From the sequence record NC_014792.1: a stretch of 64,000 bases of DNA. One strand, given 5' to 3'. The stretch comes from Escherichia phage vB_EcoM_VR7. The notes under the pieces were generated by a model. It was not told the DNA's origin, ran no database searches, and was given only the letters and a program-made list of their open reading frames with translations. Of the stretch, positions 16,501 to 61,457 are shown one piece after another; within the stretch, counting starts at the first letter, position 1; each line of letters starts with the position of its first letter. The translations under genes were made by a program, and so were the position numbers.

Positions 16501-16507
16501 AAAGAAA

Positions 16508-16533: not shown

Positions 16534-16820
16534 GCGGAATGAAATGAAACCTGCTACAGTCATTACAGCTTCTTTCTTAACAAAGACTGTAATCGCAATT
16601 GGTGCTTCAGATTCAAGCTGTCCAGTTACTATACCATTAAAAATATTTTCTGTTTGTTCAGAATTTACAAAGTTTTCAACAGGGCGAAGGTCGAATTTCT
16701 TATCTTCACCAAATACACGTCGTAATTCATTACCCACTGCGCTGTCAAACTCTTCTGAAGCTGGGATAACATTCTCAACTACCAGTTCCTGACCATTAAA
16801 GCGAAAAGATGATTTCATTT
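16528..16820 (-). CDS. hypothetical protein downstream of alt
   Basis: About 97 aa from MKSSFRF with GAGGAAA RBS and its own early promoter; the longer track ORF overlapping alt is rejected. Confidence 0.45.
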
Positions 16821-16882
16821 TGTTTTCCTCATGTGCAATTGATATGAACATTGTATCGCACTTCCTTGTGCTTGTAAACCCC

Positions 16883-18934
16883 CTATGAAAGGAATTTAGG
16901 AGGAATACTTTCCAAATTAATACAACTAGCAAGAATACCAAGGCCTTGGTTGACTTTCTTCGTCACCCTGGAGGATGCAAACGATGCGAAGTCAACAGAT
17001 TCTTCTGGTTCCTCGCCTTTATAAACGACAAGCTCGCCAGTTTCCATCAACACATCACCATCATAGATAACTGCATTTTCATCCAGTTGGTCAGTGGTCT
17101 GAATGTCAGGTTCCAGCATTTTGACGTTCGCATTTCCTTGATACGACGCATCCGTAATTTTTGTAATCTTAACTATAGTTCCACGAGGAAGAATAACTTC
17201 TTGCTCGGTCGGGTTTCCTGACAATTCACCAGGAACAATTACGTTAATTAAGTCCGCTCCAGAAATTTTCCAACCGACATGCATCATTACGTGGTCGCGG
17301 CGGGCATCCGGCATATCTGGTAAAACAATTTCGTCATCAGCCTGGAAAGATGTCCCATCACGATAGTCCTGATGAACTGCGGCCATAGCAACGTTCGCCA
17401 CCCAGCCACCAAAGATAATCGGTTTAAACGACGTTGATACATAGTTCCTGAAATAAAATAATTTAGATTTCTTAATTTTATCAAATGTAGGAACGTTTAA
17501 ATATTGACCACGCCAAAGAGTTGTATTAGGCGGCAACTTATGTCCAATTTCAAAGGCCGAATCCAATTCCTTAATTGTTTCGACAACTCTGTCTAGATTT
17601 AGGAATTCAGCTTCTTCTTCATAATATTTGCCCATCAAATAATTATTAATATCGGCATAGTTTGCTCCACAATAATCTGCAATTGCTTCTCGCTGGCCAT
17701 AATGGAAACGGTTGTCAGTATACCCTGCTGTGAAATTAAGAGTATTTTCTGATGCTTCTTCGGCAAAGTCTTTAACTGCAACACGAATGGCGCTTGTGTA
17801 TTCTTTTTCCCAGAGCGAGGCTGCATAAGTGGCTGCATCTAGGTTAGGAGGAGCATCATTCATTTTTCTTTCGATAAATGCGGCTTTGCGAAGGTTAAGA
17901 ATCTCTGCGCATGATTCGGCAAAAATCTGCATCTGCTTCATGCTACCAACTGGGGCACGTTTAAGTTCACGATGCATACGGTTAAAAATTGGGTCAGAGT
18001 CTTCAACACGAATTTCTTCTTTCCAAACACCATTTGCGCGCATAGCCGTATCCGCGGCGCGCATACGAGCCATAGTATTCGTTTCGGAAGGTCGAACAAA
18101 AATTTCCAGTTCTTCGGCATCATCAATTAATTCAGCAGTTGCAGGTCGACTAAACTTAGCAGCTTCTGCATCAATTTCGTCCCAACCTTCTGGCACGGAA
18201 TCACTTGGTGCGTACTGGGCTTGTGCAATAGCTCGGCGACTGATTTTAGTTTTCTGGGCAACAGCAGCGTCGGTCTTTTTGTTTGCTGCGTCAATCAGAA
18301 CTTCGGCTGCGATTTCTTGTTTGGAGACTTGCGCACCGTTATCTTTATTAGTGAATACGTCGCCAACTTTTGTTGTGACTTTTTGATATTTCTCAGGGAC
18401 AGGTGGCATACCATCAACCGACAGCAGGTCAACGCCCTTTTTGTACATAATTACATAAGCGTTCTTTTTACCGAGACCAGAAGCATTCGGAAGAACATGA
18501 TAACGCCCGGAAGTTTTCATTTGAATCAGTCGATTCATAATACGAATAACAGCTTGCTCTTGACCTTTCATCTTTTTGGAAGGGAAACGGAACAAGACTA
18601 CATCAGGTTTGCCTAGTTTGATACTTTCCCAGACTGTGGTAAAAATCAGGTTAATCGCATCAAGAGGTTTTTCACCTAGGCCACCCTTCAGAGGAACAGC
18701 ATGGCCGTGTGAAGTCCCAGAGAGCAGGAATACCTCGGCAATTGCATCACCACGTTTATATTGTTTAACAGTTTCTTTGCCCGTGAATTGCATTAAACGG
18801 GCCATAAGAGAATTGGTCCCAGGAACACCGAATTGCCAAACCTGCGGGACCTTGTATTTTGGATTCATATTAATGACAGGATAACCGAAGGCTTCGATAT
18901 ATTTGTCAAAGAGTTCATTTAATTGTTCAGACAT
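16883..18934 (-). CDS. alt: Alt ADP-ribosyltransferase (virion-packaged)
   Basis: 683 aa; T4 alt position; R-S-E ART signature readable (RGQYL...YVSTS...EVILPRGT); KISRRAIAQAQ segment as in T4 Alt. Confidence 0.8.
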   Translation of the reverse strand: MSEQLNELFDKYIEAFGYPVINMNPKYKVPQVWQFGVPGTNSLMARLMQFTGKETVKQYKRGDAIAEVFLLSGTSHGHAVPLKGGLGEKPLDAINLIFTTVWESIKLGKPDVVLFRFPSKKMKGQEQAVIRIMNRLIQMKTSGRYHVLPNASGLGKKNAYVIMYKKGVDLLSVDGMPPVPEKYQKVTTKVGDVFTNKDNGAQVSKQEIAAEVLIDAANKKTDAAVAQKTKISRRAIAQAQYAPSDSVPEGWDEIDAEAAKFSRPATAELIDDAEELEIFVRPSETNTMARMRAADTAMRANGVWKEEIRVEDSDPIFNRMHRELKRAPVGSMKQMQIFAESCAEILNLRKAAFIERKMNDAPPNLDAATYAASLWEKEYTSAIRVAVKDFAEEASENTLNFTAGYTDNRFHYGQREAIADYCGANYADINNYLMGKYYEEEAEFLNLDRVVETIKELDSAFEIGHKLPPNTTLWRGQYLNVPTFDKIKKSKLFYFRNYVSTSFKPIIFGGWVANVAMAAVHQDYRDGTSFQADDEIVLPDMPDARRDHVMMHVGWKISGADLINVIVPGELSGNPTEQEVILPRGTIVKITKITDASYQGNANVKMLEPDIQTTDQLDENAVIYDGDVLMETGELVVYKGEEPEESVDFASFASSRVTKKVNQGLGILASCINLESIPPKFLS

Positions 18935-22807: not shown

Positions 22808-23173
22808 TTAGATATCAAATTCATTAAGAACTACATCAAAGATTGCTTCCAGGTGTTCAGGTTTTGCTTTGTTGCTCAGAATATGGCGAATCCAAGTTTT
22901 AACCAACAGCTTGCGATTAACACCATTCCAGCAAGGATGAGTACCTAAATCACGTTCGCGGAAATCATCATCTAAAGCAATTTTAAAGTTAGAACCAGTC
23001 ATAGTGATTGAAAGAGTGATACCATTTTCAAATCGCATATAAACGTAGTTGGGAGTCATATACTGTTCAATTTCACACACTGAACCATTTTTATGTTTCC
23101 ATAAACAAATAACTTCAGAAGAACCTGGGATACAGTTAGAAACATATTTGCGTTCAAAGTTGATGTAGTTCAT
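22808..23173 (-). CDS. hypothetical protein
   Basis: 121 aa; RBS and early promoter upstream. Confidence 0.5.
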   Translation of the reverse strand: MNYINFERKYVSNCIPGSSEVICLWKHKNGSVCEIEQYMTPNYVYMRFENGITLSITMTGSNFKIALDDDFRERDLGTHPCWNGVNRKLLVKTWIRHILSNKAKPEHLEAIFDVVLNEFDI

Positions 23174-23244
23174 TTTATTCTCCAGTTGTTTTCATTTGTT
23201 GGTACAGGTCTATAATATCATAACCTGTACCAAAGTAAACTGTT

Positions 23245-23613
23245 TTATGCGACTTTAATCCAATTATCTAAATTTAATTCACCCTTAGCTTTCATTTTTT
23301 CAATCAGATTATCTGCAGTGGTGCGACCATTTTGATACCAGGTTACATCTTCAGAATAACCAGTTTCTTCATCTTCATAGGTCTTACAACGAATCTTACC
23401 AAGAATTAAAGTTTTCAGTTCGTAGGTATCACCAGTAAAAAAGTTTGTTACCATAATTTTCCAGGAGAAGTCATCAGAAGGACCTTCTGGAGTCATGCAA
23501 GAAACGAATTCAAATTGTTCTTTATACAAGTGCCATTGCATTTCTTTAGTTTCAATGGCTTTGTAACCGTCGTGGTCTTTACCTTTGATGTATGAGTTAA
23601 GATTGATTTTCAT
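23245..23613 (-). CDS. hypothetical protein
   Basis: 122 aa; early promoter-like sequence upstream (23620-23690). Confidence 0.5.
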   Translation of the reverse strand: MKINLNSYIKGKDHDGYKAIETKEMQWHLYKEQFEFVSCMTPEGPSDDFSWKIMVTNFFTGDTYELKTLILGKIRCKTYEDEETGYSEDVTWYQNGRTTADNLIEKMKAKGELNLDNWIKVA

Positions 23614-23729
23614 TTTATTCTCCAGTGTTTTATTGTGTAACTCAGTATGGAATCATTATGCACTGGACCAACCCTGTTGTAAACCCCTTTATGGAAAATA
23701 AAAAAAGGGACTCCGAAGAGTCCCTGAAC

Positions 23730-26664: not shown

Positions 26665-27206
26665 CAGATTGTCTCCTGTTTTACTTGTTTAACGATAGAA
26701 GCTTTTGTTATATCGCCTTTGATAATATAACAATCTTCTGCAGTACCACGGTTTAACAGGCGCTCTGCTTCGTCTTCCGCATATTCTTTTGACACATGAC
26801 GAGAGTTAATCTCAATCTTGCCATTTTTAACCACAAGCAATTTCCAAACTGATGCAAGTTTTACTGGCACAGGTTCAACTTCTGGCTTAACACCAACTTC
26901 CGCCTGGATGAAATAATCAAATTCATCAGACAATGGACCAGCAGAAACAAACAGCGCACCATGATGCCTGTTCTGTGTGCTAGATATTTTTGCCAAATCC
27001 ACAAAATCATTTTCATCAATCAAACGAATCTCACAAACTTTTCTTCCACCGCTGATGGTATCAGGTACAATTTTCACTTCAAACGGAGTCATACCGATGT
27101 ATCCAGCAATTTGGTAATTAGCTGCCCAGCCTCCGGCAATAAATTGTTTTTTGGCATTTTCAGACGTGAACTTGTAAAACTTACCTTCTTCAAAGAAATC
27201 ACTCAT
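26664..27206 (-). CDS. hypothetical protein (cd.x block)
   Basis: 180 aa; GAGGAAAA RBS and early promoter-like sequence upstream. Confidence 0.5.
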   Translation of the reverse strand: MSDFFEEGKFYKFTSENAKKQFIAGGWAANYQIAGYIGMTPFEVKIVPDTISGGRKVCEIRLIDENDFVDLAKISSTQNRHHGALFVSAGPLSDEFDYFIQAEVGVKPEVEPVPVKLASVWKLLVVKNGKIEINSRHVSKEYAEDEAERLLNRGTAEDCYIIKGDITKASIVKQVKQETI

Positions 27207-27272
27207 TTTGTTTTCCTCATGTGTTGATGAAATTCATTATACACCATCCATGGTGAAAGTAAACACTTTAAA

Positions 27273-27551
27273 TTAAATTGCTTCTGCAATTGCAGTTTGA
27301 TTCTGGAAGTCAACCTTACAAGAAACAGTCAAGGTAGCTCCATCAATTTTGAATGGAACAATTGCAAATGCTGCACCAGGGTGGAGCTGGACAGTGATTG
27401 CATCAACTGCATCCGGGAACATGATTTCCAGAATAGCAGACAAACGACCATGCACTTTTAGTTCAGTCGACACGTCGACGATTTCGTATAGATAATCAGA
27501 TACAATCTGACTAAAAACTAATTTAACAATTTCAGAATATGTAGGAAACAT
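27273..27551 (-). CDS. hypothetical protein
   Basis: 92 aa ORF downstream of a middle promoter. Confidence 0.45.
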   Translation of the reverse strand: MFPTYSEIVKLVFSQIVSDYLYEIVDVSTELKVHGRLSAILEIMFPDAVDAITVQLHPGAAFAIVPFKIDGATLTVSCKVDFQNQTAIAEAI

Positions 27552-28040: not shown

Positions 28041-28054
28041 CTCTACTACTTGAG

Positions 28055-28062
28055 TATAAATA
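28055..28062 (+). promoter_or_regulatory. Late promoter (TATAAATA) driving the HNH endonuclease gene
   Basis: Exact TATAAATA 27 nt before the ATG, with GAGGA RBS. Confidence 0.55.
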
Positions 28063-28088
28063 TAGTATATCACCAAAGAGGACATACA

Positions 28089-29928
<1,840 letters not shown>

Positions 29929-29932: not shown

Positions 29933-30411
29933 ACACCAAGCTCCTTATAAAGTTCTTCGCGACAAGTTTTCAGAATTTTACCAGTTTCATAAGCTGTGCT
30001 TTCAGAAACATCACCAAGTGCAGCGGCAGCTTGCATTTGGCCATGGCGTTTAGCAGCATATTCAAAACTTTTTACTAGCTCACGAATACGTTCTTTTTCA
30101 TTGTATTCTTCAATAAATTCTGGATATTCCCAAACAGGTCGCATCATACGATACCACAGTTGGATGGTAATATAATTACTTCCATCCAGATTAATAATTT
30201 GTGAAGGCTTAATAGCGCCAGGAGCATAAAAAGTTACCTGTCTTACTACATCAATACCATCCACAATAGCCCAAGCAAAATCGAAGGTGGCCTTCTTTTC
30301 AATTGGCGTGCTCGCACAAGACCCTAACTTTAAGAGCTTTTGTAATACAGGAGATTTAACTCCTGAAATGTACACAGGATTAGCTACAAAGCTGTTATCA
30401 CGTAATGACAT
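29929..30411 (-). CDS. hypothetical protein
   Basis: About 160 aa from MSLRDNSF; GAGGAAA RBS and early promoter upstream. Confidence 0.45.
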
Positions 30412-30576
30412 AATAGTTTCCTCAAATATTTTATAATCCGTAGGAGCATTATACTCTGCTCCCAAGAGTTTGTAAACTACTTACCAAAAAGACCATCAAT
30501 ACACATGCTGAATACAATTCCAAAACAAAAGCATGCAAAACCCAATCTAAAAACATCCCAGCCATCGATACAGGCT

Positions 30577-31724: not shown

Positions 31725-31958
31725 TCAATAGCGGTTATAACCTCTAGGACCAAAAGAGTTTGCACCCAGGCGCTCATCTTTCTTTTTGGCTCTTGCTCTA
31801 AACCCAGAATCACCTGTTTGGTCTTTCAGTTCTTTTAACAATTTGGCCTTCAGGTCAGTAATGAAACCAATCCGGCGGTCTCCCTTGTAGACATAGATTC
31901 CATCATTTCTGTCACCATATGCCTTTGTAACTCTGTCATTTGAAATTAAGTTTAACAT
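31725..31958 (-). CDS. truncated Alc N-terminal-domain paralog
   Basis: About 77 aa; LISNDRVTKAYGDRNDGIYVYKGDRRIGFITDLKAKL closely parallels alc residues LISNEMIVDVYGDRHDGIYVYKGSKNVGFLTDLRKKL; similarity is also visible at DNA level. Confidence 0.45.
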   Translation of the reverse strand: MLNLISNDRVTKAYGDRNDGIYVYKGDRRIGFITDLKAKLLKELKDQTGDSGFRARAKKKDERLGANSFGPRGYNRY

Positions 31959-32029
31959 GTTTTGGTCCTCATCAGTAGTTGATGGAACCATTATGTATAG
32001 AAAGAAGGGGCTTGTACACCCCTTTTTTA

Positions 32030-33166
32030 TTATTCAGGCAGGATTACATCCGCTTGGTAGTCCGCTGGGATGTAAAGTTTATGATTTTTAAGGAAAACAT
32101 TATTGATTTGAGCGATGGTTTGCTCTGTTTCCTGGGGACGTTGATACGTGTTCATTAATACGGAGAACAAACCCGGATATGGTTTACACAGTTCTTGACC
32201 TTTAATCGCAAACTCGCGTCGGTCTTTTCCTGCCAACTGTTTCTGGGCATCAAGCAACAGTCCCAGGGTATTGGACAGATAATCCAGATGGGTCAAAGTA
32301 AAGGCATTAACTTTTTCACGAGCATAATCATCGCCAGTAAACATGGCAATAACATCATCTGCACCGCCTGCGACAACAACTTCAAAAAGACGCTGGTTAT
32401 TGTTAACAGAATCCTTTGTATGGTGTAAAGCACAATACCATTCTGTCTTAACTTTAAATTTGCGACCATCGACCAGCTCATAGACAAAGCCTTCAATCTC
32501 TTTCATATCACGGACGTTTTCAATTGTAGCCGGGTCATATGCTTCAACCAGGAATGGGCGAAGCGCGGCATCTTTAAACAAATCCCGATAAGGGATATAT
32601 TCACCAGTTTCATTATGGCGAACGTTCAGTAAAATCAGGTCACGTTCCTGGTAAGGCAAAACAATGCGGTTGGTTGGCGCAACATATTCCATATTGCATG
32701 TATAACCAGCTTCAGTAATTTCAGTTACACGCTCACGGAAAGCTATACGGTGTTCTTGTTTGAATACCTGCAGGGCTTCTGCTGCCTGGGAGCTTTTGAT
32801 TGACCCTTTGGATTTAAAAGCAATATTGGTCTGGTCCATATAAGTGGAGACAAGAGAGCCATCAGCCTTGGTCATGACCAGCGCAACTTCATCCATATTG
32901 ATATCCATGGTCAACGGATTTTCGCCCAAGTTAAAGAACTTTTCCATAGGACGAGCCGCAATACGAACTGGACCATCTGCATCCATTTCAAACATAATGC
33001 CACGGCACTCTAATGCATCATCAAGGAGCCAATCACTATAGGAAGCATAGTTATAGCTAAAGATGCGGAACTTAGTTTCAAATGGAGAAACGAAATCAGT
33101 ATAGAAAAACTTACCTTTTTCAGATTCAGCGCACAGCTTCATTAAGTTGTCATATAATTCAATCAT
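32030..33166 (-). CDS. rnlA: RNA ligase 1
   Basis: 378 aa; strong match to T4 Rnl1 (FRIFSYNYASYSDWLL.DALECRGIMFEMD...TKADGSLVSTY). Confidence 0.95.
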   Translation of the reverse strand: MIELYDNLMKLCAESEKGKFFYTDFVSPFETKFRIFSYNYASYSDWLLDDALECRGIMFEMDADGPVRIAARPMEKFFNLGENPLTMDINMDEVALVMTKADGSLVSTYMDQTNIAFKSKGSIKSSQAAEALQVFKQEHRIAFRERVTEITEAGYTCNMEYVAPTNRIVLPYQERDLILLNVRHNETGEYIPYRDLFKDAALRPFLVEAYDPATIENVRDMKEIEGFVYELVDGRKFKVKTEWYCALHHTKDSVNNNQRLFEVVVAGGADDVIAMFTGDDYAREKVNAFTLTHLDYLSNTLGLLLDAQKQLAGKDRREFAIKGQELCKPYPGLFSVLMNTYQRPQETEQTIAQINNVFLKNHKLYIPADYQADVILPE

Positions 33167-33579: not shown

Positions 33580-33581
33580 AA

Positions 33582-33598
33582 AGGGCCGAAGCCCTTTC
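33582..33598 (-). terminator. Hairpin terminator between nrdB and denA
   Basis: GGGCCGAAGCCC hairpin with T-run on the minus strand. Confidence 0.5.
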
Positions 33599-39214: not shown

Positions 39215-39454
39215 TCACGCTTTCTTAGCGATTTTCCAGTCAGCTTTAAATTGGTCAACATCAGAGTGGTGAATCCAGAAACCAGATGAGCTACCATCTT
39301 CATAAAGAGGACAACCATCACACTCATCTTTCCAACCCATTGCACACAAAGTTTCTTCTGCTTTTTCCAGAGCTTCTGGATTGTTACCTTGGATTGTGAA
39401 GTACCATTTGCCTTTAACTTCTGAATCTTTGATGCTCTCACGTTTTAATTTCAT
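39215..39454 (-). CDS. hypothetical protein (frd.3 position)
   Basis: 79 aa; Cys/His-containing (CAMGWKDECDGCP). Confidence 0.45.
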   Translation of the reverse strand: MKLKRESIKDSEVKGKWYFTIQGNNPEALEKAEETLCAMGWKDECDGCPLYEDGSSSGFWIHHSDVDQFKADWKIAKKA

Positions 39455-39513
39455 TTTATTCTCCTCAAGTTGGTAAGGCTATAGTATCACTACCATAGCC
39501 CTGTTGTAAACAT

Positions 39514-39741
39514 TTATTTTTGAATTAAGCCCATATAAAATTCAGCATCTTCAACATGCATACCATCACAATACTCGTCAGTCATAAAACGAGTCAGGTC
39601 TTCAAGAGGGCCTTGAACTTCAATTTGGATACTAAAGAATTGAGTATCTTTTATGTAAGTCATACTCAAAGAAGGATAACGATTACGGATAACTTCGTAA
39701 GTGTATTCAAAATCAACAATATCAATATTAACTTTAGCCAT
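39514..39741 (-). CDS. hypothetical protein
   Basis: 75 aa; RBS and early promoter upstream. Confidence 0.45.
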
Positions 39742-39805
39742 TTTATTTTCCTCATGTAGTTGATAGGTCTATAGTATCTCAACCATAGACAGTGTACACT
39801 ACTTT

Positions 39806-40072
39806 TTAAATTTTATCAAGCCATTTGCCAAGTTTAGTCATTTCTTTAGTAGCTTTTTCTAGACTTCTGAACTTGACTAACAAAGGATAAGTATCTACAC
39901 CCATAACTAAAGTGGTTACAAGACTATGCTCGCCTACAAGCCATAGAGAATACGTTTGAACATCAAGTCCGTAATTTCGGTCTTTATGAACACGTACACC
40001 CATCACTTCAAACTGTTCGCTGGCTTTTTCTACTGCATCCAGGAAATCATCTTTAGTCATATTAAATTCCAA
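39806..40072 (-). CDS. hypothetical protein
   Basis: 88 aa ORF. Confidence 0.4.
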   Translation of the reverse strand: MEFNMTKDDFLDAVEKASEQFEVMGVRVHKDRNYGLDVQTYSLWLVGEHSLVTTLVMGVDTYPLLVKFRSLEKATKEMTKLGKWLDKI

Positions 40073-40433
40073 AGGTAGCTTTAATCAAGGCAATGACTTC
40101 CGCTGCATTTTTGTGATTAACCTGCACATGAATGGTTTGCGTGTCAACAACAGGAGCTGGAGCTTCATCCACTTCTAAGAAGTATTGGAATTCACCTTCA
40201 GCGAGCTCGAAATAGTATTCACCTTTCATGTCCATGGAAGTAAAGATTGTCCCGTCTTTCATTTCAATCATTTCAACAAAATACTCACCATAATAGCATC
40301 CCATATCCAGAACTTTAAAGGTGTCACCACACTCTGCCATCCGCTTAACCATAAGTGCATTATCATCTGGACAGTCAGCGATGAAACGTTTTTTAGCAGC
40401 GGGGTCTAATACGTAAGTTTTACCAGTTTCCAT
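40062..40433 (-). CDS. hypothetical protein
   Basis: 123 aa; RBS and early promoter upstream. Confidence 0.45.
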   Translation of the reverse strand: METGKTYVLDPAAKKRFIADCPDDNALMVKRMAECGDTFKVLDMGCYYGEYFVEMIEMKDGTIFTSMDMKGEYYFELAEGEFQYFLEVDEAPAPVVDTQTIHVQVNHKNAAEVIALIKATFGI

Positions 40434-40510
40434 TTTTATTTCCTCAGTTGTTATCAGCAGTTGATGGAATCATTATGCCTTAGCTCAAGGAGCTTGTACA
40501 CTACTTTTTG

Positions 40511-40540
40511 AAAATAAAAAAGGGACCCGAAGGTCCCCTT
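40511..40540 (-). terminator. Rho-independent terminator after gene 32
   Basis: GGGACCTTCGGGTCCC hairpin followed by TTTTTTATTTT on the minus strand. Confidence 0.7.
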
Positions 40541-40543
40541 ATA

Positions 40544-41455
40544 TTAAAGGCCAGCCAGAAGGTCGTCAAGACCATCATCAGAAGGCTCTGGAGTGCTTGG
40601 AGCAGTCGCAGTGCGTTCAGACTTAGCAGGTTTGTTGGAAGTGAAGTCTTCCATATCTTTATCAAAATCGTCCAGGTCAGCGCCCAGTTTATCAGCTTGT
40701 GCAGCAGCTTTAGAAGCAGCACCGCCGAGAGCAGCCGTACCCATTACTTTAGAGAATTTCTTCTGATTCTCTTCAAGGGATTTAAACACCAGCAATTCAT
40801 TCAGGTCAGACATTTCGTCCCAAAGTTTTTTCTGGAACGCTTCATCATTGATGCCAGCGATTTCAGACTGGTTCATGAATTTGGAATCATCGTAGTTTTT
40901 ATAACCGGAAACCATTTTAGATTTCAGTACGAAGTTCGCACCTTCAAAAGGACAAGTTACATCAATAGCTGTTTCGCCCATGTCAACATCGACTTCAACC
41001 ATCTGGTTGATTTTGTCCATGATTTTCTTACCGAAGCGGTATTTGAATACTTGACCTTCGTTAGACGGAACAGCAGGGTCTTTAATGACCAGGATGTTAG
41101 CCCAGTAAGAAGTATTACGCTTCAGTTTACGATATTCGGATTCGTTTGTATTGTACAGGTCATTCTTATTCATGTACGCACACACAGGACAGTTTTCATA
41201 GTCGCCGTGAGTAGAAGTACAGTTTTCAATATACCATTGACCAGCATTTTTAAAGCCGTGGTTAACCAACTTAATGAACGGAGATGGATTTTCTTCATTC
41301 TTAGAAGGCAGGAAACGAATAACCGCAGAGCCGACGCCATCAGTATCTTTCAGTTTCCATTCTTTTTTATCGTCAGAAGAGAAACCGGCACCACCTTTCA
41401 GAGCGTTCAGGGAAGCGGCGAGGTCAGCTGGGTTACGACGTTTAAACATAGACAT
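40544..41455 (-). CDS. 32: gp32 single-stranded DNA-binding protein
   Basis: 303 aa; strong match to T4 gp32 (AVIRFLPSK...HGFK..G.WYIE.C.STHGDY; acidic C-terminal tail). Confidence 0.95.
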
Positions 41456-41636: not shown

Positions 41637-42185
41637 TTATCTGGGTTTGAGTAACGGCGCTTTAGCAGAATCACTAAGAGTTTTTATCACTTCAATACCT
41701 CTGATATTATTTATTTTATCATCTTTTTCATAAAAGCGATTTAAGCCTTCAGAAATTGATTTCTTATGCTCCGTGCTTTTTGGAACATCCTTTTGTGCTT
41801 CCGAAATACATTGATTTGTGTATATGGAATTTTTCATTCCATATCTTGGTGCGCGTTCACCGGCACCACCAAATGCACCATGAGCTGTTGCTTTATTAAA
41901 GAATAGCGGTGATTTTGGTATATTATAATGAGAGTGGTACCACTCTTCCTCGTCCAAAACATCTTCACAGACATCGAGTATTTTAACTGTCGGCTTTTCG
42001 AGTTGAATAGCTTCAAGAAAATCAGCTTGCTCACATGAGGACCAATATTCTCTTCTTGAAGTATATTTCAAATCAATTATAACACCATTTTCAAAAGCGC
42101 AATTATGCTTTGACCCAATGTAAAAATAAGGAGGTGTTTTATTTTTCAGACGAGTTTCAAATGTAAACCAATATACAACATTCAA
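41637..42185 (-). CDS. segG: GIY-YIG homing endonuclease (SegG-like)
   Basis: 182 aa; N-terminal VVYWFTFETRL...PYFYIGSK GIY-YIG-like motif; sits between genes 32 and 59 like T4 segG. Confidence 0.55.
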   Translation of the reverse strand: MNVVYWFTFETRLKNKTPPYFYIGSKHNCAFENGVIIDLKYTSRREYWSSCEQADFLEAIQLEKPTVKILDVCEDVLDEEEWYHSHYNIPKSPLFFNKATAHGAFGGAGERAPRYGMKNSIYTNQCISEAQKDVPKSTEHKKSISEGLNRFYEKDDKINNIRGIEVIKTLSDSAKAPLLKPR

Positions 42186-44357: not shown

Positions 44358-44386
44358 TTATATTAGCATAAAATTTTTAAAGCAAT
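44358..44386 (-). promoter_or_regulatory. MotA-dependent middle promoter for rnh
   Basis: Minus strand reads TGCTTTA, 12 nt, TAATAT; GAGG RBS before the rnh ATG. Confidence 0.5.
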
Positions 44387-44393
44387 ATAAATA
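44386..44393 (+). promoter_or_regulatory. Late promoter (TATAAATA) for gene 34
   Basis: Exact TATAAATA 30 nt before the gene 34 ATG; divergent from the rnh promoter. Confidence 0.65.
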
Positions 44394-44423: not shown

Positions 44424-47400
44424 ATGGCCGATATTTTAAAACCAGCATTCAGAGCAACATCCGGTCTCGATGCTGCTGGTGAGAAAGTCATTAATGTCGC
44501 TAAAGCTGATTACTCAGTTTTGTCAGACGGCGTGAACGTAAACTTCTTTATAGAAGAAAACACAATTCAACAATATGATGCAACACGCGGATATAAGAAA
44601 GATTTTGCAGTTATTTATGATAACCGTATTTGGGTTTCCCAACGCGAAATCGCAGAACCAGCAGGCTCATTTGTTCAGCAATATTGGACTGCAACCCGTA
44701 CTGACCCGAAATGGGAAACTGTTGCATCACCGACTCGTCAGCTTAATTCCGGGGAATTTATCGCGGTCGACTCAGCTGCAAGCTTTACCACATTTACATT
44801 GCCTCCGAACCCGACTGATGGTGATACCATCGTTATTAAAGATATCGGCGGCAATACCGGTTATAATGAAATCAAAGTTCAATCTAGCAATGTGCCGGGG
44901 CAAGGTAACCAAAAAATTGTTCGTTTTGGTAATCAGTATTCAGAAGTTTTAATTACCAAACCGTTCTCTTATAACATGCTTATTTTCTCCAACCGTTTAT
45001 GGCAGTTCTGGGAAGCAGGGAACGAAGAACGTGGAATAAGAATTGAACCAAGCTCTGGTAAATATCGTGCTCAGGCTGCAGACTTTATTATGCGCCGCTA
45101 CACGACTGCAGAGAAGATTACATTTGTTCTTCCTAAGTATGCTAACCAAGGTGATATTGTCAAATCGGTAGATATAGATGGATTAGGGCCATTATATCAC
45201 CTGGATGTTGAAACGTTTGACGAGTCAAGCTCTCTGGGTAAACAGGGACAGCACAGTATGGAATTCCGTACAACTGGTGATGGCTTCTTCGTTTATAATG
45301 CCACTGAAAAACTGTGGGTGACTTGGGATGGTGATAACAAAACTCGCCTGCGTGTAATCCGTGACAGTGTGAAATTGCTGCCAAACGAAAGCATTATCGT
45401 ATTTGGTAATGATAACAGCACTCCACAGACAATTAACATCGACCTTCCAACGGGTGTTCGTCCTGGGGACGTAGTTAAGATTGCTCTGAACTATCTTCGC
45501 AAGGCACAGACTGTTAATATTAAGGCCACCGCGCTTGATAAAATCGCGTCTTCTGTTCAGCTGCTTCAGTTCCCGAAACGTTCGGAATATCCACCTGACA
45601 CTGAATGGGTATTGGTTGACTCTTTGACTTTCAATGGCAACATAAGTTATACGCCGGTTATCGAATTAAGTTATCTTGAAGATACGGTTAAGAACATTAA
45701 CTATTGGGTTGTTGCACAAAACGTTCCGACTGTTGAGCGTGTTGACTCAAAAGATGATTTGACCCGAGCTCGTCTGGGTGTTATTGCACTGGCTAACCAG
45801 GCTCAGGTTAACGTTGACCATGAAAATAACCCTGAAAAAGAATTAGCAATTACCCCGCAAACTTTAGCTAACCGTGTGGCTACTGAATCACGCCGCGGTA
45901 TTGCACGAATCGCTAACACAGCACAGGTTAACCAGGATACGACTTTTGCTTTCCAGGATGATATTATCGTTTCTCCGAAAAAGTTAAACGAACGTACAGC
46001 TACAGAAACAAGACGTGGGCTCGCAGAAATCGCCACACAGCAAGAAACTGATGCAGGTATAGATGATACCACAATCATCACTCCACGCAAGCTACAAGCT
46101 CGCCAGGGCTCCGAAAGCTTATCGGGTATTGTCAAGTATGTTCCTACTACTGGGACTACTCCAGCTGCAAGTCGTATAACTGTTGGGACTAACGTTTATA
46201 ATAAGAACACAACTAATTTAGTTATTTCTCCTAAAGCTTTAGACCAATATAAAGCTGACCAGAATAACCAAGGTGCTGTATATCTAGCAACTCAGTCAGA
46301 AGTTAACGCAGGGGCAACAAATACAGGATTCAGTAACTCGGCAGTAACTCCTGAAACATTAGGTGCTCGCAGAGCAACAGATTCAAACCACGGTTTAATC
46401 GAGATTGCAACTCAGGTTGAAACTAATGCCGGTACTGATTATACCAGAGCTGTAACTCCTAAAACGTTGAATGACCGTAAAGCAACAGAATCATTATCCG
46501 GCATAGCCGAGATTGCTACGCAATCAGAATTTGATACTGGAACTGATGATACTCGTATTGCAACGCCATTAAAAATTAAAACTAGATTTAATAATACTGC
46601 TCGTACTTCTGTTATTGCAGCAAGTGGTTTAGTAGAAACAGGGACGCTCTGGGACCATTATACGCTGAATATTCTTGAAGCAAATGAGACTCAACGTGGC
46701 ACCGCAAGACTGGCTACTCAGTTGGAAGTAAACACGGGTACTGACGATAAAACAATCGTTACTCCGCTTAAGTTGATGTCGAAAAAAGCTACAGAAGGCA
46801 CCGAAGGTATTGTTCGCATCGCTACTCGCGCAGAAACCATCGCAGGAACAAGTTCAGTTCTGGCTGTTTCTCCGGTAAGTCTGAAATGGATTGTACAGTC
46901 CGAACCAACATGGGCAGCAACCACGACGACACGCGGCTTTGTTAAGATGTCTGAAGGCGCAATTACTTTTGTCGGTAATGCAACCGCAGGTTCCACTCAG
47001 GCTCTTGACCTGTACGAGAAAAATAGCTATGCTATTTCGCCATACGAGTTAAACAAAACCCTTGGTAACTTCCTGCCGCGTTTGGCAAAAGCGGTAGACT
47101 CTGATAAATTGGACAACCTGGACAGTACGCAGTTCGTTCGTCGTGATGTAGCCCAGGATATTAACGCTGCTATGACATTTAAACAGCCTGTAAGAATTGA
47201 AAGTACTTTAACCGTTACAGGTGTGGTTAATTTGAGTGGTTCTATTACTTCAAATAATACTACATTAACCGGTTCTACTACAATCAATAGCAATTCTACA
47301 GTAGGTGCTCTGAATTACATTGAGTTTACTTCAGAATCTCAAGGCTCCGGTACTTGGAACTCCCAACATGATAGTAATGTTAAAGCTCCTGTATTTTTAA

Positions 47401-48299
47401 ATATAACTACTCCGGTAGGCTCATCTAGATATGTTCCTTTAATTAAGCAACGTTATAAAGATGGGACATTTACCTTTGGTACATTGATAAATGAACCCAC
47501 CTCAAATGATGAGGGTGCTTTTATTCTTCACTATATAGATGCGGTAAAACCCCAGCGCAAATGGACCTTTAGACGTAACGGCGATTTAGAAATAACTGCA
47601 GGTAATTTCGTTCTTGGTAATGGGTCTGCTATAATTAACGGGGGTCTTAGTGTTACTAAAGCTTCAGGTATCACAACCACCGGGCTAGTTGCTAATAGTG
47701 AATCTAGATTCGAAGGCGCTGTTACTATTAACAACTTCCTTACGGTAAGCAACAAAGCTACACTTAACAACGGCTTAGCTGTTCAGAAATATGCAAGGGT
47801 TGCAGGAGATAAGACTTCTGATATCTATAGTAGAAAACCTACAATGGATACCGCAGGTTTTTGGTCTGTTGACATTAATGATTCAGCCACATATAATCAG
47901 TTCCCGGGTTATTTCAAAATGGTTGAAAAGACCAACGAAGTAACTGGTCTGCCTTATTTGGAGCGTGGTGAAGAAGTTAAATCACCGGGTACATTAACTC
48001 AGTTTGGTAACACACTGAATTCACTCTATCAAGATTGGATTACTTATCCGAATACGACCACGGCAAGCACCACTCGCTGGACTCGTACATGGCAGCAGAA
48101 CAAAAATGCATGGTCTGGTTTTGTTCAGGTCTTTGATGGTGGTAACCCACCGCAGCCTTCGGATATCGGTGCATTGCCTGCTGATAACGCTTCGATGAGC
48201 AACCTGACTATCAGAGATTGGTTAAGAATCGGTAACGTACGTATTGTTCCGGACCCAGTAACTAAATCCGTTAAATTCGAATGGATTGATACACCATAA
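44424..48299 (+). CDS. 34: long tail fibre proximal subunit gp34
   Basis: 1291 aa; long stretches near-identical to T4 gp34 (SSVQLLQFPKRSEYPP, ATETRRGIARIA repeats, C-terminal FVQVFDGGNPPQPSDIGALP). Confidence 0.95.
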   Translation: MADILKPAFRATSGLDAAGEKVINVAKADYSVLSDGVNVNFFIEENTIQQYDATRGYKKDFAVIYDNRIWVSQREIAEPAGSFVQQYWTATRTDPKWETVASPTRQLNSGEFIAVDSAASFTTFTLPPNPTDGDTIVIKDIGGNTGYNEIKVQSSNVPGQGNQKIVRFGNQYSEVLITKPFSYNMLIFSNRLWQFWEAGNEERGIRIEPSSGKYRAQAADFIMRRYTTAEKITFVLPKYANQGDIVKSVDIDGLGPLYHLDVETFDESSSLGKQGQHSMEFRTTGDGFFVYNATEKLWVTWDGDNKTRLRVIRDSVKLLPNESIIVFGNDNSTPQTINIDLPTGVRPGDVVKIALNYLRKAQTVNIKATALDKIASSVQLLQFPKRSEYPPDTEWVLVDSLTFNGNISYTPVIELSYLEDTVKNINYWVVAQNVPTVERVDSKDDLTRARLGVIALANQAQVNVDHENNPEKELAITPQTLANRVATESRRGIARIANTAQVNQDTTFAFQDDIIVSPKKLNERTATETRRGLAEIATQQETDAGIDDTTIITPRKLQARQGSESLSGIVKYVPTTGTTPAASRITVGTNVYNKNTTNLVISPKALDQYKADQNNQGAVYLATQSEVNAGATNTGFSNSAVTPETLGARRATDSNHGLIEIATQVETNAGTDYTRAVTPKTLNDRKATESLSGIAEIATQSEFDTGTDDTRIATPLKIKTRFNNTARTSVIAASGLVETGTLWDHYTLNILEANETQRGTARLATQLEVNTGTDDKTIVTPLKLMSKKATEGTEGIVRIATRAETIAGTSSVLAVSPVSLKWIVQSEPTWAATTTTRGFVKMSEGAITFVGNATAGSTQALDLYEKNSYAISPYELNKTLGNFLPRLAKAVDSDKLDNLDSTQFVRRDVAQDINAAMTFKQPVRIESTLTVTGVVNLSGSITSNNTTLTGSTTINSNSTVGALNYIEFTSESQGSGTWNSQHDSNVKAPVFLNITTPVGSSRYVPLIKQRYKDGTFTFGTLINEPTSNDEGAFILHYIDAVKPQRKWTFRRNGDLEITAGNFVLGNGSAIINGGLSVTKASGITTTGLVANSESRFEGAVTINNFLTVSNKATLNNGLAVQKYARVAGDKTSDIYSRKPTMDTAGFWSVDINDSATYNQFPGYFKMVEKTNEVTGLPYLERGEEVKSPGTLTQFGNTLNSLYQDWITYPNTTTASTTRWTRTWQQNKNAWSGFVQVFDGGNPPQPSDIGALPADNASMSNLTIRDWLRIGNVRIVPDPVTKSVKFEWIDTP

Positions 48300-48307
48300 G
48301 AGGTATT

Positions 48308-49444: not shown

Positions 49445-49467
49445 GGGCCTTCGGGTCCTTTTTTCGT
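49445..49467 (+). terminator. Hairpin terminator after gene 35
   Basis: GGGCCTTCGGGTCC hairpin followed by TTTTTT. Confidence 0.55.
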
Positions 49468-49475
49468 TATAAATA
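49468..49475 (+). promoter_or_regulatory. Late promoter (TATAAATA) for genes 36-37-38
   Basis: Exact TATAAATA 25 nt before the gene 36 ATG. Confidence 0.65.
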
Positions 49476-49500
49476 CTCCTATCTAATAAGGGGAACTAAT

Positions 49501-50160: not shown

Positions 50161-50168
50161 GAGGCAAT

Positions 50169-53309: not shown

Positions 53310-53336
53310 GGAGAGGGGCTTCGGCCCCTTCTGAAT

Positions 53337-54576: not shown

Positions 54577-54848
54577 AATCCGGAGGTATACATCATCAGA
54601 TATCGGTGTATATCTTCGAATCCTTCGTTAAATTGTTCAATGATTTGTTCAATTTCATCTTCAGATAAACTTTTAAACAACTTGTTAAACGATACATTGT
54701 TTAACTCATTCCCATTCTCATTCCTCAATCCCAACTCATTCAAAAACGCGATAAACACATCACGCTTCATCGTAATATCTTCCCGGTCGGTTTTAATCAA
54801 AATAGATGTAACGGTAACAATTTCAGAAACGATTTCAAATTTAGTCAT
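54573..54848 (-). CDS. asiA: AsiA anti-sigma70 factor
   Basis: 91 aa; match to T4 AsiA (EIVTVTSILIK..REDI...R..FIAFLNE.G; C-terminal DEFNEGFE..YRYL.MYT). Confidence 0.85.
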   Translation of the reverse strand: MTKFEIVSEIVTVTSILIKTDREDITMKRDVFIAFLNELGLRNENGNELNNVSFNKLFKSLSEDEIEQIIEQFNEGFEDIHRYLMMYTSGF

Positions 54849-54906
54849 TTTATTTTACTCAAGTATTCAATAAGACATTCAATTATTCAGTAAGGATATT
54901 GTACTA

Positions 54907-55071
54907 TTATTCCTCTGGGTTGTACACATGATTTTCCATGTGTACAGCATATTCCTGATACATATCTTCAATTGGTTCCTGGAACTTAAAATCAGCTCCA
55001 AGAAATTCCTCAAAGCAAGCCTGCTCGCGTGTACGCTGACCAGTGATGGTGTTCTCTAAGTTATGACTCAT
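54907..55071 (-). CDS. small acidic protein (54 aa), not in the ORF track
   Basis: MSHNLENTITGQRTREQACFEEFLGADFKFQEPIEDMYQEYAVHMENHVYNPEE; weak RBS; between asiA and motA. Confidence 0.3.
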   Translation of the reverse strand: MSHNLENTITGQRTREQACFEEFLGADFKFQEPIEDMYQEYAVHMENHVYNPEE

Positions 55072-57040: not shown

Positions 57041-57268
57041 TTATCCCTTGATGGATTTCATGTAATTTGATGCATATGATTGTACCACAGTACGCTTCAT
57101 ATGGGAAGTAGAAACAACAACATCAATCGCTTGTTTACGTTCTTCTTTAGAATTCGCCAGTTTGAACATGTCAAAGTAGTAATAGCAAGCTTCTTTGTTA
57201 GATTTGAATTTAGCGTTGATGTATTCTTGACCTTCATTCTGTTGTGCAGTAAACATTTTATTCTCCAA
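57041..57268 (-). CDS. hypothetical protein (motA.1 position)
   Basis: 75 aa; early promoter and RBS upstream. Confidence 0.45.
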   Translation of the reverse strand: MENKMFTAQQNEGQEYINAKFKSNKEACYYYFDMFKLANSKEERKQAIDVVVSTSHMKRTVVQSYASNYMKSIKG

Positions 57269-57348
57269 AGTTTTTGTGATTCAGTGTGTAACTCAGTATG
57301 GAATCATTATGCATCAGGTCAAGGGTCTTGTACACTACTTTTTAAAAT

Positions 57349-57372
57349 AAAAAAGGACCCCGAAGGGTCCTA
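57349..57372 (-). terminator. Rho-independent terminator downstream of gene 52
   Basis: GGACCCTTCGGGGTCC hairpin followed by TTTTTTATTTT on the minus strand. Confidence 0.65.
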
Positions 57373-59240: not shown

Positions 59241-59690
59241 TTAATAGCTCTGTAGAATGAATTTAAAGTTATCAGCAAGCATGCGATTCATTTCTGAAAG
59301 GGTCTGGCAATCAGAACTATGCGAGCGAGTGAACGCCATCGCAATTTGACCTTTACCATAACCAGTTGTCAGAGGTTTCATTTTAGAAACCGGGACAAAC
59401 AGGACTTCATAGATAACCCCATTGTTCGCCATTGTGCGAGACAGTTGTGAACGCTGTTTGCGGATGTGACTTAATACAGTGTCAAACCCTTGTTGTGAAC
59501 GTTGGTTACCAACATAAAAACGTGCAGCAACAATACGTGATTCGCCTTCACCTTTGACCACGAAATAAAAACCTGGTTGGGTGATAGCTTCTTTAGTTGG
59601 ACGACCCGCAACATAATTACCATTATGGATGTAAGCAATAGTGGTAGCGCCAGCATTCAGTACGTCACGACGAGTCATGTAAGTAGTCAT
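59241..59690 (-). CDS. hypothetical protein; positional candidate for Ndd
   Basis: 149 aa, close to T4 Ndd size and position; no sequence recall to confirm. Confidence 0.4.
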
Positions 59691-59763
59691 ATTAATTTCC
59701 TCAGTAAGTTAAAGTTTTGTGCTCCAGTGGGGTCATTATACTCTGACCCCAAGAGTTTGTACA

Positions 59764-60108
59764 CTATTTTTGAAGCTGTTCTAAAATAAATCCGCTGGTG
59801 TAAAGGCTTGCATTATAAAGGCGGTCAAGAGACAATGAATCCAATCCATAAGCTTCGCGAATTGCATTGATAGCACTTTCGTAACTGGTATAATAAACAT
59901 CGCGATAATCACGGTCCATAGTCATGCGGAACTTAATAAATTTATAGAAACCAGTTTCAGGGTCCTGATAGAATGCAAATTCTGCAGACATCAAATTTTT
60001 AAGGTGAACAACTTTTGTGCCACCTGAATAACTTAAATCAAAGGCTTCTGATACGCTAATTTGTTTAAAGAACATAATGTTGCGATTGCCAAAAAAGACT
60101 TTAGACAT
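59764..60108 (-). CDS. hypothetical protein
   Basis: 114 aa; GAGGAAA RBS. Confidence 0.4.
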   Translation of the reverse strand: MSKVFFGNRNIMFFKQISVSEAFDLSYSGGTKVVHLKNLMSAEFAFYQDPETGFYKFIKFRMTMDRDYRDVYYTSYESAINAIREAYGLDSLSLDRLYNASLYTSGFILEQLQK

Positions 60109-60573: not shown

Positions 60574-60839
60574 AATATTATCCTCAAAAGAAATAGTTAA
60601 AGTAAACACGCACATGGTCAATCATAAAAACAATTGGGAAAATGCTCAGGACAACAAACAGTACAAACATGTTCCAAATGGCTTTAAGTAACTTTTTCAT
60701 AATCATCTCCAGTAGTTGATAGGTTCATTATACTACAACCACCGGAGATGTACACTCTTTTATGCTGTTATTAATAAACTAAAACACACACAAATCATTG
60801 GAATGGATAATACCCAGATAAGACACCAATTTTTGCTGC

Positions 60840-61106
60840 TCAAAATATCACCTCTTTGATTTCAATCAATCCCCTGTACAATGCAGTGCGGAGGTCATAA
60901 AGAATATCTATGCCATCAACATTATCCAGCTTGCCATCAATAAGCTTTTCCAAATCTTCCTTTGATGCAACCAATGGGCGAAGAAATTTACAATCAGAAA
61001 GAGATAACTCTGTAGTAACATCATCACCATCACCTGACGCATCATACATAGCGGCAATAACCCATACCTGTACTTTGTGTTTGGCGTAGTATAATTTAAT
61101 ATCCAT
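60840..61106 (-). CDS. hypothetical acidic protein
   Basis: About 88 aa from MDIKLYY with GGAG RBS; early promoter upstream. Confidence 0.4.
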   Translation of the reverse strand: MDIKLYYAKHKVQVWVIAAMYDASGDGDDVTTELSLSDCKFLRPLVASKEDLEKLIDGKLDNVDGIDILYDLRTALYRGLIEIKEVIF

Positions 61107-61181
61107 TTTTTCTCCAGTTGTTTGGTAACTCAGTATGGAATCATTATACATAGACTCCATACTGATGTACACTATTTTTAA

Positions 61182-61457
61182 TTAATTGTGCATTTGTTCT
61201 TTAACTTCTTTGTATGCACCAACTGCACTCACGACCCCAGTAAAATCTGCAGTCCCACGATAGAGATAGAAAGCAATTTCAGTCAGGTGGTAGACTTCAA
61301 ATTCTGAAAGATAAACGATAACGTCATAATAGGCAACTTGACCCTGGACTTCATTGAATACTACATCAAAAATTTCATGGGTTGGAAAATTGATGTTGTT
61401 GTTTTTGAGTGCTTGAATGAGAATTTGTTTGATGTGGTGAGTAGTAACGTGTTCCAT
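61182..61457 (-). CDS. hypothetical protein
   Basis: About 91 aa from MEHVTTHH with GAGGA RBS. Confidence 0.4.
   Translation of the reverse strand: MEHVTTHHIKQILIQALKNNNINFPTHEIFDVVFNEVQGQVAYYDVIVYLSEFEVYHLTEIAFYLYRGTADFTGVVSAVGAYKEVKEQMHN

Follow-up and report, generated by a model that had tools for sequence, protein, structure and literature searches.

Composite early-promoter/stem-loop cassettes (PeSLs), which combine a promoter with a stem-loop and an AT-rich tract, have been described in RB49/phi1 (Arbiol et al. 2010, PMC2839356) and in PST/T4 and nt-1/KVP40 (Comeau et al. 2014, PMC4122927). They lie among ORFans in hyperplastic regions, their promoter and terminator activity has been shown, and they take part in modular shuffling and mini-circle formation (PMC2839356; PMC4122927). 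Their stem-loops are mostly found between the -35 element and the -10 element or over the latter, a role in attenuating or insulating read-through has been shown experimentally for those of RB49/phi1, and "PeSL-like sequences" have been mentioned near gene 43 of JS98 (PMC2839356). The early promoters of T4 carry an extended consensus beyond the two hexamers, an "uber" UP/-35/TGn/-10 arrangement, and the mechanism by which they are shut off was stated to be unknown (Hinton 2010, PMC2988021). Here we analyse a family of related cassettes in a 64,000-nucleotide stretch of the genome of Escherichia phage vB_EcoM_VR7 (NC_014792.1), referred to below as the window.

The window comes from a T4-like coliphage of the VR25/SP18/TH15 group (genus Gaprivervirus), of whose genome it makes up the right-hand 64 kb, and shows 95-98% identity to VR25 in the regions tested. 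Early and middle genes form two minus-strand blocks, at 16.5-44.4 kb (alt-30.x-cd-pseT-nrd-td-frd-32-59-rnh) and 54.6-64 kb (asiA-arn-motA-52-ndd-denB-rIIB), while the genes for the tail fibres and the holin lie on the plus strand. A search of the PeSL papers and the other literature consulted found no cataloguing of PeSLs and no promoter study for the VR25/SP18 group, and the cassettes described here add this uncatalogued T4-like coliphage lineage to the published PeSL picture. We consider it very likely (a probability of roughly 0.85) that 14 intergenic elements in the window are sigma70-dependent early promoters of this Gaprivervirus T4-like phage, packaged as cassettes.

Identification and layout of the cassettes

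A preliminary description of the window had listed 12 minus-strand sites as a dispersed family. These were extended by a loose pattern search and by scanning with a family-specific position weight matrix (PWM) built from the window copies. The module was recovered at all 12 sites and at two more, 16878 and 54926 (copies are named by their -35 coordinate, e.g. 40500, 57334, 61171). Every one of the 14 copies lies on the minus strand, in the early-gene direction. Scored leave-one-out, the copies reach 10-46 bits, compared with at most 12 bits in 10 Markov shuffles of the window. The sole plus-strand match, at 53871, overlaps the TATAAATA late-type promoter of holin gene t, and in the PWM scan of the window no cassette copy was found in the tail-fibre or other plus-strand blocks. 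In an unsupervised repeat search, the main dispersed repeats of the window (D3-D11) proved to be this same family. A generic sigma70 scan is blind to the family, its promoter-like sites not being in excess over shuffles (61 vs 52, 56 vs 52 and 59 vs 50), and a family-specific PWM was therefore needed. Nowhere in the window did an Rfam family attain its gathering score.

All 14 copies are intergenic, with the stop codon of the upstream gene on one side of the cassette and a Shine-Dalgarno (SD) sequence and ATG on the other. They are placed in the 30.x, cd, pseT, frd, arn/motA and ndd/denB regions, among small variable open reading frames (ORFs). Each contains a sigma70-type -35 and -10 with an upstream AT-rich tract, giving the consensus aaAAAg.aGT(g/t)TACA, 16-18 bp, (t/c)ATAAT. 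The commonest -35 is TGTACA (9/14 copies) and the commonest -10 is CATAAT or TATAAT, followed by G. When the copies are aligned, as the preliminary description proposed, the likeness goes beyond generic hexamers: the two hexamers account for ~14.5 bits, and ~12 bits more lie outside them, in an invariant G before the -35 (position -37), an A-tract at about -45 to -39, and a G after the -10 together with the next seven positions. The predicted start, 7 nt past the -10, is an A preceded by a pyrimidine in 12 of the 14 copies. A TGn extended -10 was seen only at 39510 and 23239, the scan finding none in the remaining 12. MotA-dependent middle promoters have a MotA box, (a/t)(a/t)TGCTT(t/c)A, centred at -30 where other promoters have a -35. 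TGCTT at -30 was looked for and occurs in no cassette; GT(G/T)TAC is present at -35 in all of them.

The representative cassette (40431..40545, minus strand) begins at the stop codon of gene 32 and lies between gene 32 and an FRD2-family gene. Its terminator hairpin, GGGGACC-TTCG-GGTCCC at 40519-40540, is followed by a T-run and then the A-tract. The promoter consists of G+TGTACA, with the -35 at 40495-40500, a 17-bp spacer and a CATAAT -10 at 40472-40477, and the leader runs from a predicted start at A 40465 through the conserved GATTCCATCAAC and an SD GAGG to the ATG at 40433. The adjoining ORFs encode gp32 (PF08804), FRD2, FRD3 and DUF5417 (frd.1).

Generalizing from the copies, the proposed layout runs from the stop codon of the upstream gene, through an optional C(UUCG)G intrinsic terminator and an A-rich, UP-like tract, to the G+T(G/T)TACA -35. 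After a 16-18 bp spacer and a (T/C)A(T/C)(A/T)AT -10, transcription would start at an A ~7 nt downstream, leaving a leader of 20-43 nt with a GAGG or GGAG ribosome-binding site ahead of the ATG.

Relationship to T4 early promoters and published PeSLs

The window PWM finds matches in T4, scoring 18-38 bits, at 129917, 130309, 133330, 146142, 146874, 163672, 166806 and 167085. These fall at the corresponding junctions: 30.8/30.7, 30.9/30.8, cd.3/cd.2, downstream of rnlA, frd.1, downstream of gene 32, upstream of motA and in the ndd region. At cd.3/cd.2 the T4 match has its -35 at 133330 and a start at 133295, which is Pe133295, curated in NC_000866; the 27263 copy occupies the same position. The recovery of orthologous T4 promoters, this curated one among them, bears out the earlier view of the elements as T4-type early promoters.

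The window copies resemble T4 early promoters in their A-rich upstream tract, GTTTAC-type -35 and TATAAT-like -10, in a conserved initial transcribed region (CTATCAAC in T4, CCATCAAC or CCATACTG in the window), and in their placement at the same junctions (downstream of gene 32, upstream of motA, cd.3/cd.2, 30.8/30.7 and frd.1). They differ in the -35, which is TTTACA in T4 and most commonly TGTACA in the window, and in the -10, TACTAT in T4 and CATAAT or TATAAT plus G here. The TGn extended -10 of T4, found in 2/14 window copies, is a difference in detail and no bar to membership of the sigma70 early promoter class.

Judged by sequence, the cassettes match the PeSL class, and the idea that such elements promote shuffling has already been published as the PeSL model (PMC2839356, PMC4122927). 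The two share the same series of parts (upstream stop, AT-rich tract, sigma70-type -35 and -10, stem-loop, SD and start codon), and in both the stem-loops lie mostly between the boxes or over the -10 and contain G.T pairs. Both are found among small non-essential ORFs. Some window copies, like published PeSLs, also sit at joints of insertions, deletions and replacements between close relatives, with apparent recombination joints in or beside the stem-loop, though per junction no more often than junctions lacking a cassette. The -35 of RB49 is TTGACA, however, whereas the window has the T4-type GT(G/T)TACA, and the window stems are not built from a G-run and a C-run. Activity and mini-circles have been shown for published PeSLs, and the window copies were compared with them at the level of sequence. 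The window cassette junctions also differ from the PeSL picture in not being enriched for rearrangement over other junctions (see below).

Similarity among copies

The copies had been described as nearly identical, which proved too strong. Over 83 aligned positions their pairwise identity averages 44% (random 26%) and reaches 67% at most. The longest exact tracts between copies are 29, 23, 23, 21, 18 and 17 bp, and only 18 of the 91 copy pairs share an exact tract of 12 bp or more. Exact tracts of 15-29 bp are found in three places: the terminator hairpin with its T-run, the A-tract with the -35, and the -10 with the leader and SD-ATG segment. Three subfamilies can be recognized, with 57334, 23683 and 61171 having (C/T)ATAATGATTCCATACTGAGTTAC in common, 40500 and 32018 CATAATG(A/G)TTCCATCAACT, and 30476 and 59763 TACAAACTCTTGGG..CAGAGTATAATG. 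The 29-bp tract is common to copies 23683 and 57334.

The closest paralogue of the 40500 copy is 57334 (67% identity). The copies at these two positions, one past gene 32 and the other ahead of motA, are mutual closest paralogues in both phages, at 0.67 identity in the window and 0.76 in T4, compared with 0.41 and 0.37 between the positional orthologues of the two phages. That paralogues are closer than orthologues indicates homogenisation within each genome (concerted evolution); the alternative would be a lineage-wide co-adaptation of the consensus.

Rearrangements among relatives

The window was compared with seven relatives: SP18, TH15, TH40, TH54, TH44, TH55 and VR25. The segment from gene 32 to frd.1 shows six module orders in these eight genomes. 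Writing A, A2 and A3 for FRD2 paralogues, B for a small ORF and C for FRD3, the order is 32 / A B / C / frd.1 in the window, 32 / A3 / A B / C / frd.1 in VR25, 32 / A2 / A B / frd.1 in SP18, 32 / A2 / C / A B / frd.1 in TH40, TH44 and TH55, 32 / A2 / C / A / frd.1 in TH54, and 32 / A B* / A2 / C / frd.1 in TH15. The cassette past gene 32 is unchanged whatever gene comes next. The cassette before C (39798) is chimeric, since its -10 half and leader are constant and its -35 half varies with the upstream gene, being AAAGTAGTGTACA after B and CAGTTTACA after A2. In SP18 the A2/A junction is identical to the A2/C cassette of TH54 up to the ATG, and TH15 has a mosaic cassette in which a ACTGAGTTACAC patch takes the place of CAACTACT.

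Similar differences occur elsewhere. Between 30.9 and 30.8 (copy 23683), SP18 and TH54 contain an extra ORF flanked by two TTCG hairpins with T-runs. At the 61171 locus, TH15, TH44 and TH55 have an extra ORF of ~53 amino acids, with the joint in the SD-ATG segment. In SP18 and TH15 the ORF downstream of 30476 is deleted, and in TH44 it is replaced, the edge of the break lying in the leader at ~30409-30418. A cassette of the 30476 type is present between ndd.1 and the next ORF in SP18 and TH44 and absent from the window, VR25 and TH15, and the 39510 position holds a different cassette in five relatives. Altogether, joints inside cassettes or chimeric cassettes were seen for 6 of the 14 copies, and these joints support recombination within cassettes. 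They provide base-resolution examples of the reordering, loss and gain of modules, with joints in the terminator hairpin, the -35/spacer or the SD-ATG segment.

Several differences between the window and its relatives involve likely homing-endonuclease genes or lie away from the cassettes. The 163-aa ORF at 62557-63048 (minus strand), between denB.1 and rIIB, corresponds to a 502-bp gap in the alignments with VR25, SP18, TH15, TH40, TH44 and TH55 and is absent from all relatives that span this junction; its weak match to an AP2 domain, below the Pfam cut-off, suggests an insertion of homing-endonuclease type. Two other likely homing-endonuclease ORFs are those at 28050-28814 (plus strand), with a NUMOD3 motif and a mobE-like annotation in VR25, which is missing from TH15, TH44, TH54 and TH55, and at 41637-42185 (minus strand), at the segG position, with gene 32 on one side and gene 59 on the other, which is missing from VR25, TH40, TH44 and TH54. 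The presence and absence of these two ORFs is unconnected with the cassettes. SP18 (1-3757) has tandem alta and altb in place of the single alt of the window, a ~1.9 kb insertion at window position 18934-18941 that also lies away from the cassettes. On the plus strand, tail-fibre genes 34-37 (46850-53900) are mosaic when set against the relatives, with 65-80% identity or no alignment across large parts of 34, 36 and 37.

Stem-loops and terminators

The preliminary description presented the family as terminator-plus-promoter units with a frequent adjacent GC hairpin. This overstates the case, as a canonical GC hairpin with a T-run lies upstream in only 3/14 copies (40500, 57334 and 23683), each closed by C(TTCG)G, and the intrinsic-terminator pattern of a GC stem, short loop and T-run after the stop was found only at 40519-40540, 57354-57371 and 23706-23725. 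A stem encloses the -10 in seven copies (61171, 60754, 59763, 39798, 39510, 30476 and 23239) and the -35 in one (32018), which together with the three upstream terminators places a stem-loop in or beside the promoter in 11 of the 14. The eight copies with an internal stem have folds better than those of 99% or more of the shuffles (z -2.7 to -6.5). Internal stems are found in none of the three terminator copies and in eight of the other 11 (hypergeometric p ~0.055), so that terminators and internal stems are complementary, which fits a shared role.

The spacers had also been called often palindromic. In seven copies the supposed palindrome is really the arm of a stem that encloses the -10; the claim does not hold for the representative copy, where the spacer palindrome AGCTC/GAGCT is broken in 6/7 relatives and its fold is not significant, and we treat it as chance.

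The stems are almost invariant in the seven relatives, so that covariation among orthologues gave little signal and paralogous cassettes and T4 were used instead. Across 15 distinct cassettes of the GGG-NN-CA / TG-NN-CCC subfamily, drawn from the window and relatives, a 7-bp stem is paired in 99% of cells, with one pair occurring as AU, GC, CG and UA; slid controls are paired in 44-56%. Stem-forming spacers are 95-100% conserved across the relatives, compared with 79-81% for the spacers of 40500 and 57334, two of the three terminator-type cassettes. T4 likewise has stems around the -10, at 129917, 133330, 146142 and 166806; at the first of these, the promoter orthologous to 23239, the stem is the same as in that copy. 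Where positions within the stems depart from Watson-Crick pairing, the sense strand nearly always has G.T (~20 locus-positions, compared with a single A.C), and of 44 distinct strong hairpins 35 are more stable on the sense strand. These compensatory changes and the sense-strand bias indicate that the pairing itself is under selection in the -10-enclosing stems, and point to pairing of the sense strand, in read-through RNA or non-template DNA, rather than to a symmetric protein-binding site. Since the predicted start leaves the 5' arm upstream, no stem can form in the promoter's own transcript; it can form only in read-through RNA or in unwound DNA.

In the 60754 copy the 3' arm extends over the SD GGAG, and the same is true of T4 166806 (GGAG/GGAGG). 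At both loci read-through RNA would be translationally masked and the cassette's own transcript free. In the T4 genes e, soc and I-TevI, the ribosome-binding site is hidden by a hairpin in read-through RNA and free in transcripts that start inside the hairpin. The 60754 and T4 166806 stems are like these in covering the SD; the known cases use late promoters, whereas those here are early, and in most window cassettes the stem stops short of the SD.

C(TTCG)G hairpins without a promoter also occur on the minus strand of the window, at 16505-16526 after an alt.-3-like ORF (differing by ~1 base from the gene 32 hairpin), at 18972-18991 after gene 30, and at ~33580-33598 after nrdB. Tuerk and colleagues reportedly described, in 1988, C(UUCG)G tetraloop hairpins and intrinsic terminators in the intercistronic regions of T4. 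The three cassette hairpins and the three promoterless ones appear to be of the same kind, sharing GC stems closed by C(TTCG)G, and in the terminator scan those at 16505-16526 and 18972-18991 also have T-rich tails.

Interpretation and alternatives

Based on these comparisons, we propose that the phage recombination system can use the exact tracts of 15-29 bp as portable homology, and that recombination between cassettes would lead to the gain, loss, reordering and replacement of promoter-plus-ORF modules and to mosaic cassettes. The stems, for their part, may attenuate or insulate read-through, allowing each small gene module to keep its own transcriptional input.

A number of observations weigh against parts of this interpretation. 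The early timing of the promoters is deduced from their sequence and orthology. Homology is short between most copies. A structural difference in at least one relative was found at 6/14 cassette junctions and at 25/57 other junctions (odds ratio 0.96, Fisher p = 1), and many of the non-cassette differences involve genes for homing endonucleases or small, tightly coupled ORFs. Copies 54926, 27263 and 16878 have neither a terminator nor a stem that is significant when folded against shuffles. The -10-enclosing stems are not followed by a T-run and hence are not canonical intrinsic terminators, and the greater stability of the sense over the antisense strand holds at ~7/9 loci only, which makes it suggestive only. 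An attenuator or insulator role is the most likely one for the stems, by analogy with the PeSLs.

The preliminary description had further supposed that the copies mediate deletions and gene shuffling. The joints inside cassettes and the six module orders speak for this; the absence of any enrichment does not, and we reject a reading of the cassette junctions as hot spots. The cassettes are thus usable homology and not demonstrated hot spots, and the equal rate of rearrangement at other junctions in this sample cautions against invoking dedicated recombination hot spots. The gain, loss and reordering of modules are apparent from the comparison with relatives, and recombination is the mechanism that we infer for them.

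This lack of enrichment is also what would be expected if the copies were alike only through selection as very strong promoters, by constraint or convergence, and had no special part in rearrangement, the differences appearing at junctions since only gene-preserving rearrangements survive. Consistent with this, 64 of 80 distinct break coordinates fall at gene junctions of any kind, cassette cores are 96.3% conserved compared with 93.2% for flanking genes, and an extended consensus is already known for T4 early promoters (PMC2988021). Selection for gene-preserving joints does explain much of the junction bias. Selection alone, however, does not predict joints within the element, as in the chimeric and mosaic cassettes, nor an insertion or deletion of a cassette alone, whose sequence agrees as far as the ATG with that of a copy 30 kb distant. 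It also sits poorly with within-genome paralogues that are closer than positional orthologues in both the window phage and T4, and with subfamily tracts of 23-29 bp that extend past the positions needed for polymerase contacts. We regard this explanation as possible but unlikely, and favour early-promoter cassettes that also serve as homology.

The stems allow a more specific suggestion, namely that those enclosing the -10 form a conserved, structure-selected switch on the sense strand, in which transcripts from the cassette's own promoter are active and read-through is stopped or destabilised, or has its ribosome-binding site hidden. We think this improbable as it stands. If it were true, each small gene would be expressed only from its own early promoter, the shut-off of small genes would be coupled to that of early promoters, and promoter-plus-ORF modules would be functionally autonomous and hence freely exchangeable.

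Alternatively, the stems could act at the level of DNA, with extrusion of a hairpin or cruciform, on supercoiled or unwound DNA, that presents the -10 single-stranded and thereby modulates open-complex formation, or that offers a substrate for a structure-specific nuclease (e.g. endonuclease VII) that triggers recombination. The -10 is in or at the loop in seven copies, the sense-strand G.T bias would fit pairing of non-template DNA equally, and the PeSL authors speculated that some protein might target the stem-loop (PMC2839356). Extrusion is unlikely, however, for stems of 6-7 bp with loops of 8 nt, and rearrangements are not in excess at cassette junctions, which leaves this explanation distinctly improbable.

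It is highly improbable that the inverted repeats are operators at which a dimeric regulator of phage or host shuts early promoters off. Their centring on the -10 would suit such a role, as would the stated lack of a known mechanism for T4 early-promoter shut-off (PMC2988021). Against this, and we rejected the idea, the arms differ between cassettes by compensatory substitutions so that only pairing is kept, the arms vary in length (5-17 bp) and the loops in size, a G.T pair on one strand would be an A.C mismatch on the other, and three strong copies lack any repeat.

Finally, autonomous or semi-autonomous MITE-like mobile elements that insert by their own mechanism are hardly credible and were rejected. 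In their favour, one pair of neighbouring genes has a cassette between them in some of the phages and none in others, and SP18 and TH44 have a single cassette type at two loci far apart. Against them, there are no terminal inverted repeats, target-site duplication or associated transposase, empty and filled sites differ by short microhomology (AATA-type) with the filled allele altering the end of the upstream gene, and donor-type homology extends past the SD as far as the ATG, which ectopic recombination or gene conversion would predict.

Individual cassettes

The remaining 13 cassettes, all on the minus strand, vary in their stems and in their neighbouring genes. Two more carry upstream terminators. 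The 57334 cassette (57254..57371) comes after gene 52 and before a small ORF and motA, with its terminator hairpin at 57354-57371, -35 at 57329-57334, -10 at 57306-57311 and ATG at 57256. The 23683 cassette (23611..23725) is between 30.9 and 30.8, with its hairpin at 23706-23725, -35 at 23678-23683, -10 at 23655-23660 and ATG at 23613.

Among the cassettes whose stems enclose the -10, that at 61171 (61104..61185; -35 at 61166-61171, ATG at 61106) has a 13-bp stem, TCAGTATGGAGTC / GATTCCATACTGA, with the -10 (61143-61148) as its loop, and that at 60754 (60698..60768; -35 at 60749-60754, ATG at 60700) has a 17-bp stem around the -10 at 60727-60732. Upstream of ndd, the 59763 cassette (59688..59777; -35 at 59758-59763, ATG at 59690) places the stem GGGGTCA/TGACCCC around the -10 at 59735-59740. 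The 39798 cassette (39739..39812; -35 at 39793-39798), upstream of the FRD3-family gene, has the stem GTCTAT/ATAGAC around the -10 at 39771-39776. At 39510 (39452..39524; -35 at 39505-39510), upstream of frd.1 (DUF5417), the spacer is predicted to pair with the -10 (39481-39486) in a 12-bp stem. The 30476 cassette (30409..30490; -35 at 30471-30476), downstream of pseT.2, has the stem GGGAGCA/TGCTCC(T) around the -10 at 30448-30453, and the 23239 cassette (23171..23253; -35 at 23234-23239), between 30.8 and 30.7, has GGTACAGGT/ACCTGTACC around the -10 at 23212-23217. In the 32018 cassette (31956..32032; -10 at 31990-31995, ATG at 31958), downstream of rnlA, the hairpin AAGGGG/CCCCTT (32005-32024) instead surrounds the -35 at 32013-32018.

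The 54926 cassette (54846..54940), upstream of asiA, is a weaker member, with its -35 at 54921-54926, a TACAAT -10 at 54898-54903 and no significant stem. The 16878 cassette (16816..16892), directly past the alt stop codon, likewise has no significant stem; its -35 is at 16873-16878, its TACAAT -10 at 16850-16855 and its ATG at 16818. Between cd.3 and the next ORF, the 27263 cassette (27204..27277) has a TTTACT -35 at 27258-27263 and a -10 at 27236-27241, and the fold of its spacer palindrome CACCAT/ATGGTG is not significant.

A possible degenerate fifteenth member, scoring 12.7 bits, lies inside the end of denB at 61456-61516 (minus strand), with TTTACA, 17 bp and AATAAT. The 7-bp stem GTCCTCA...TGAGGAC that follows this candidate would hide the ribosome-binding site of the next ORF.

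The leaders differ in their ribosome-binding sites. Six of the 14 downstream genes have a GGAG-containing site of the CTGGAGAATAAAATG type (leaders 23613, 23173, 57256, 61106, 60700 and 39454), and most other leaders have GAGGAAA. GGAG is the target of the T4 RegB endoribonuclease.

For several small early genes (those with ATGs at 31958, 30411, 61106, 57256 and 16818), calling the longest ORF misplaces the start, for example at an ATG within the -10 CATAATGG at 31991 or at TTG or GTG codons inside cassettes. The layout of the cassettes points to the downstream ATGs with proper ribosome-binding sites as the true starts, and the 14 sites thus supply promoter, start and true start-codon positions for the annotation of small early genes.

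Other features of the window

A 24-nt repeat at 27602-27625 and 44364-44387 reads AATGCTTTAAAAATTTTATG on the minus strand and includes a MotA-box-like TGCTT. Its two copies lie upstream of cd.3 and rnh, in long intergenic gaps free of cassettes, and are probably middle promoters. On the plus strand, the 427-aa ORF at 2531-3814 contains 9- and 18-nt periodic arrays (GGT ATT CAA GGT ..., families D1 and D2) at 2603-3478, which read as a collagen-like Gly-X-Y tract.

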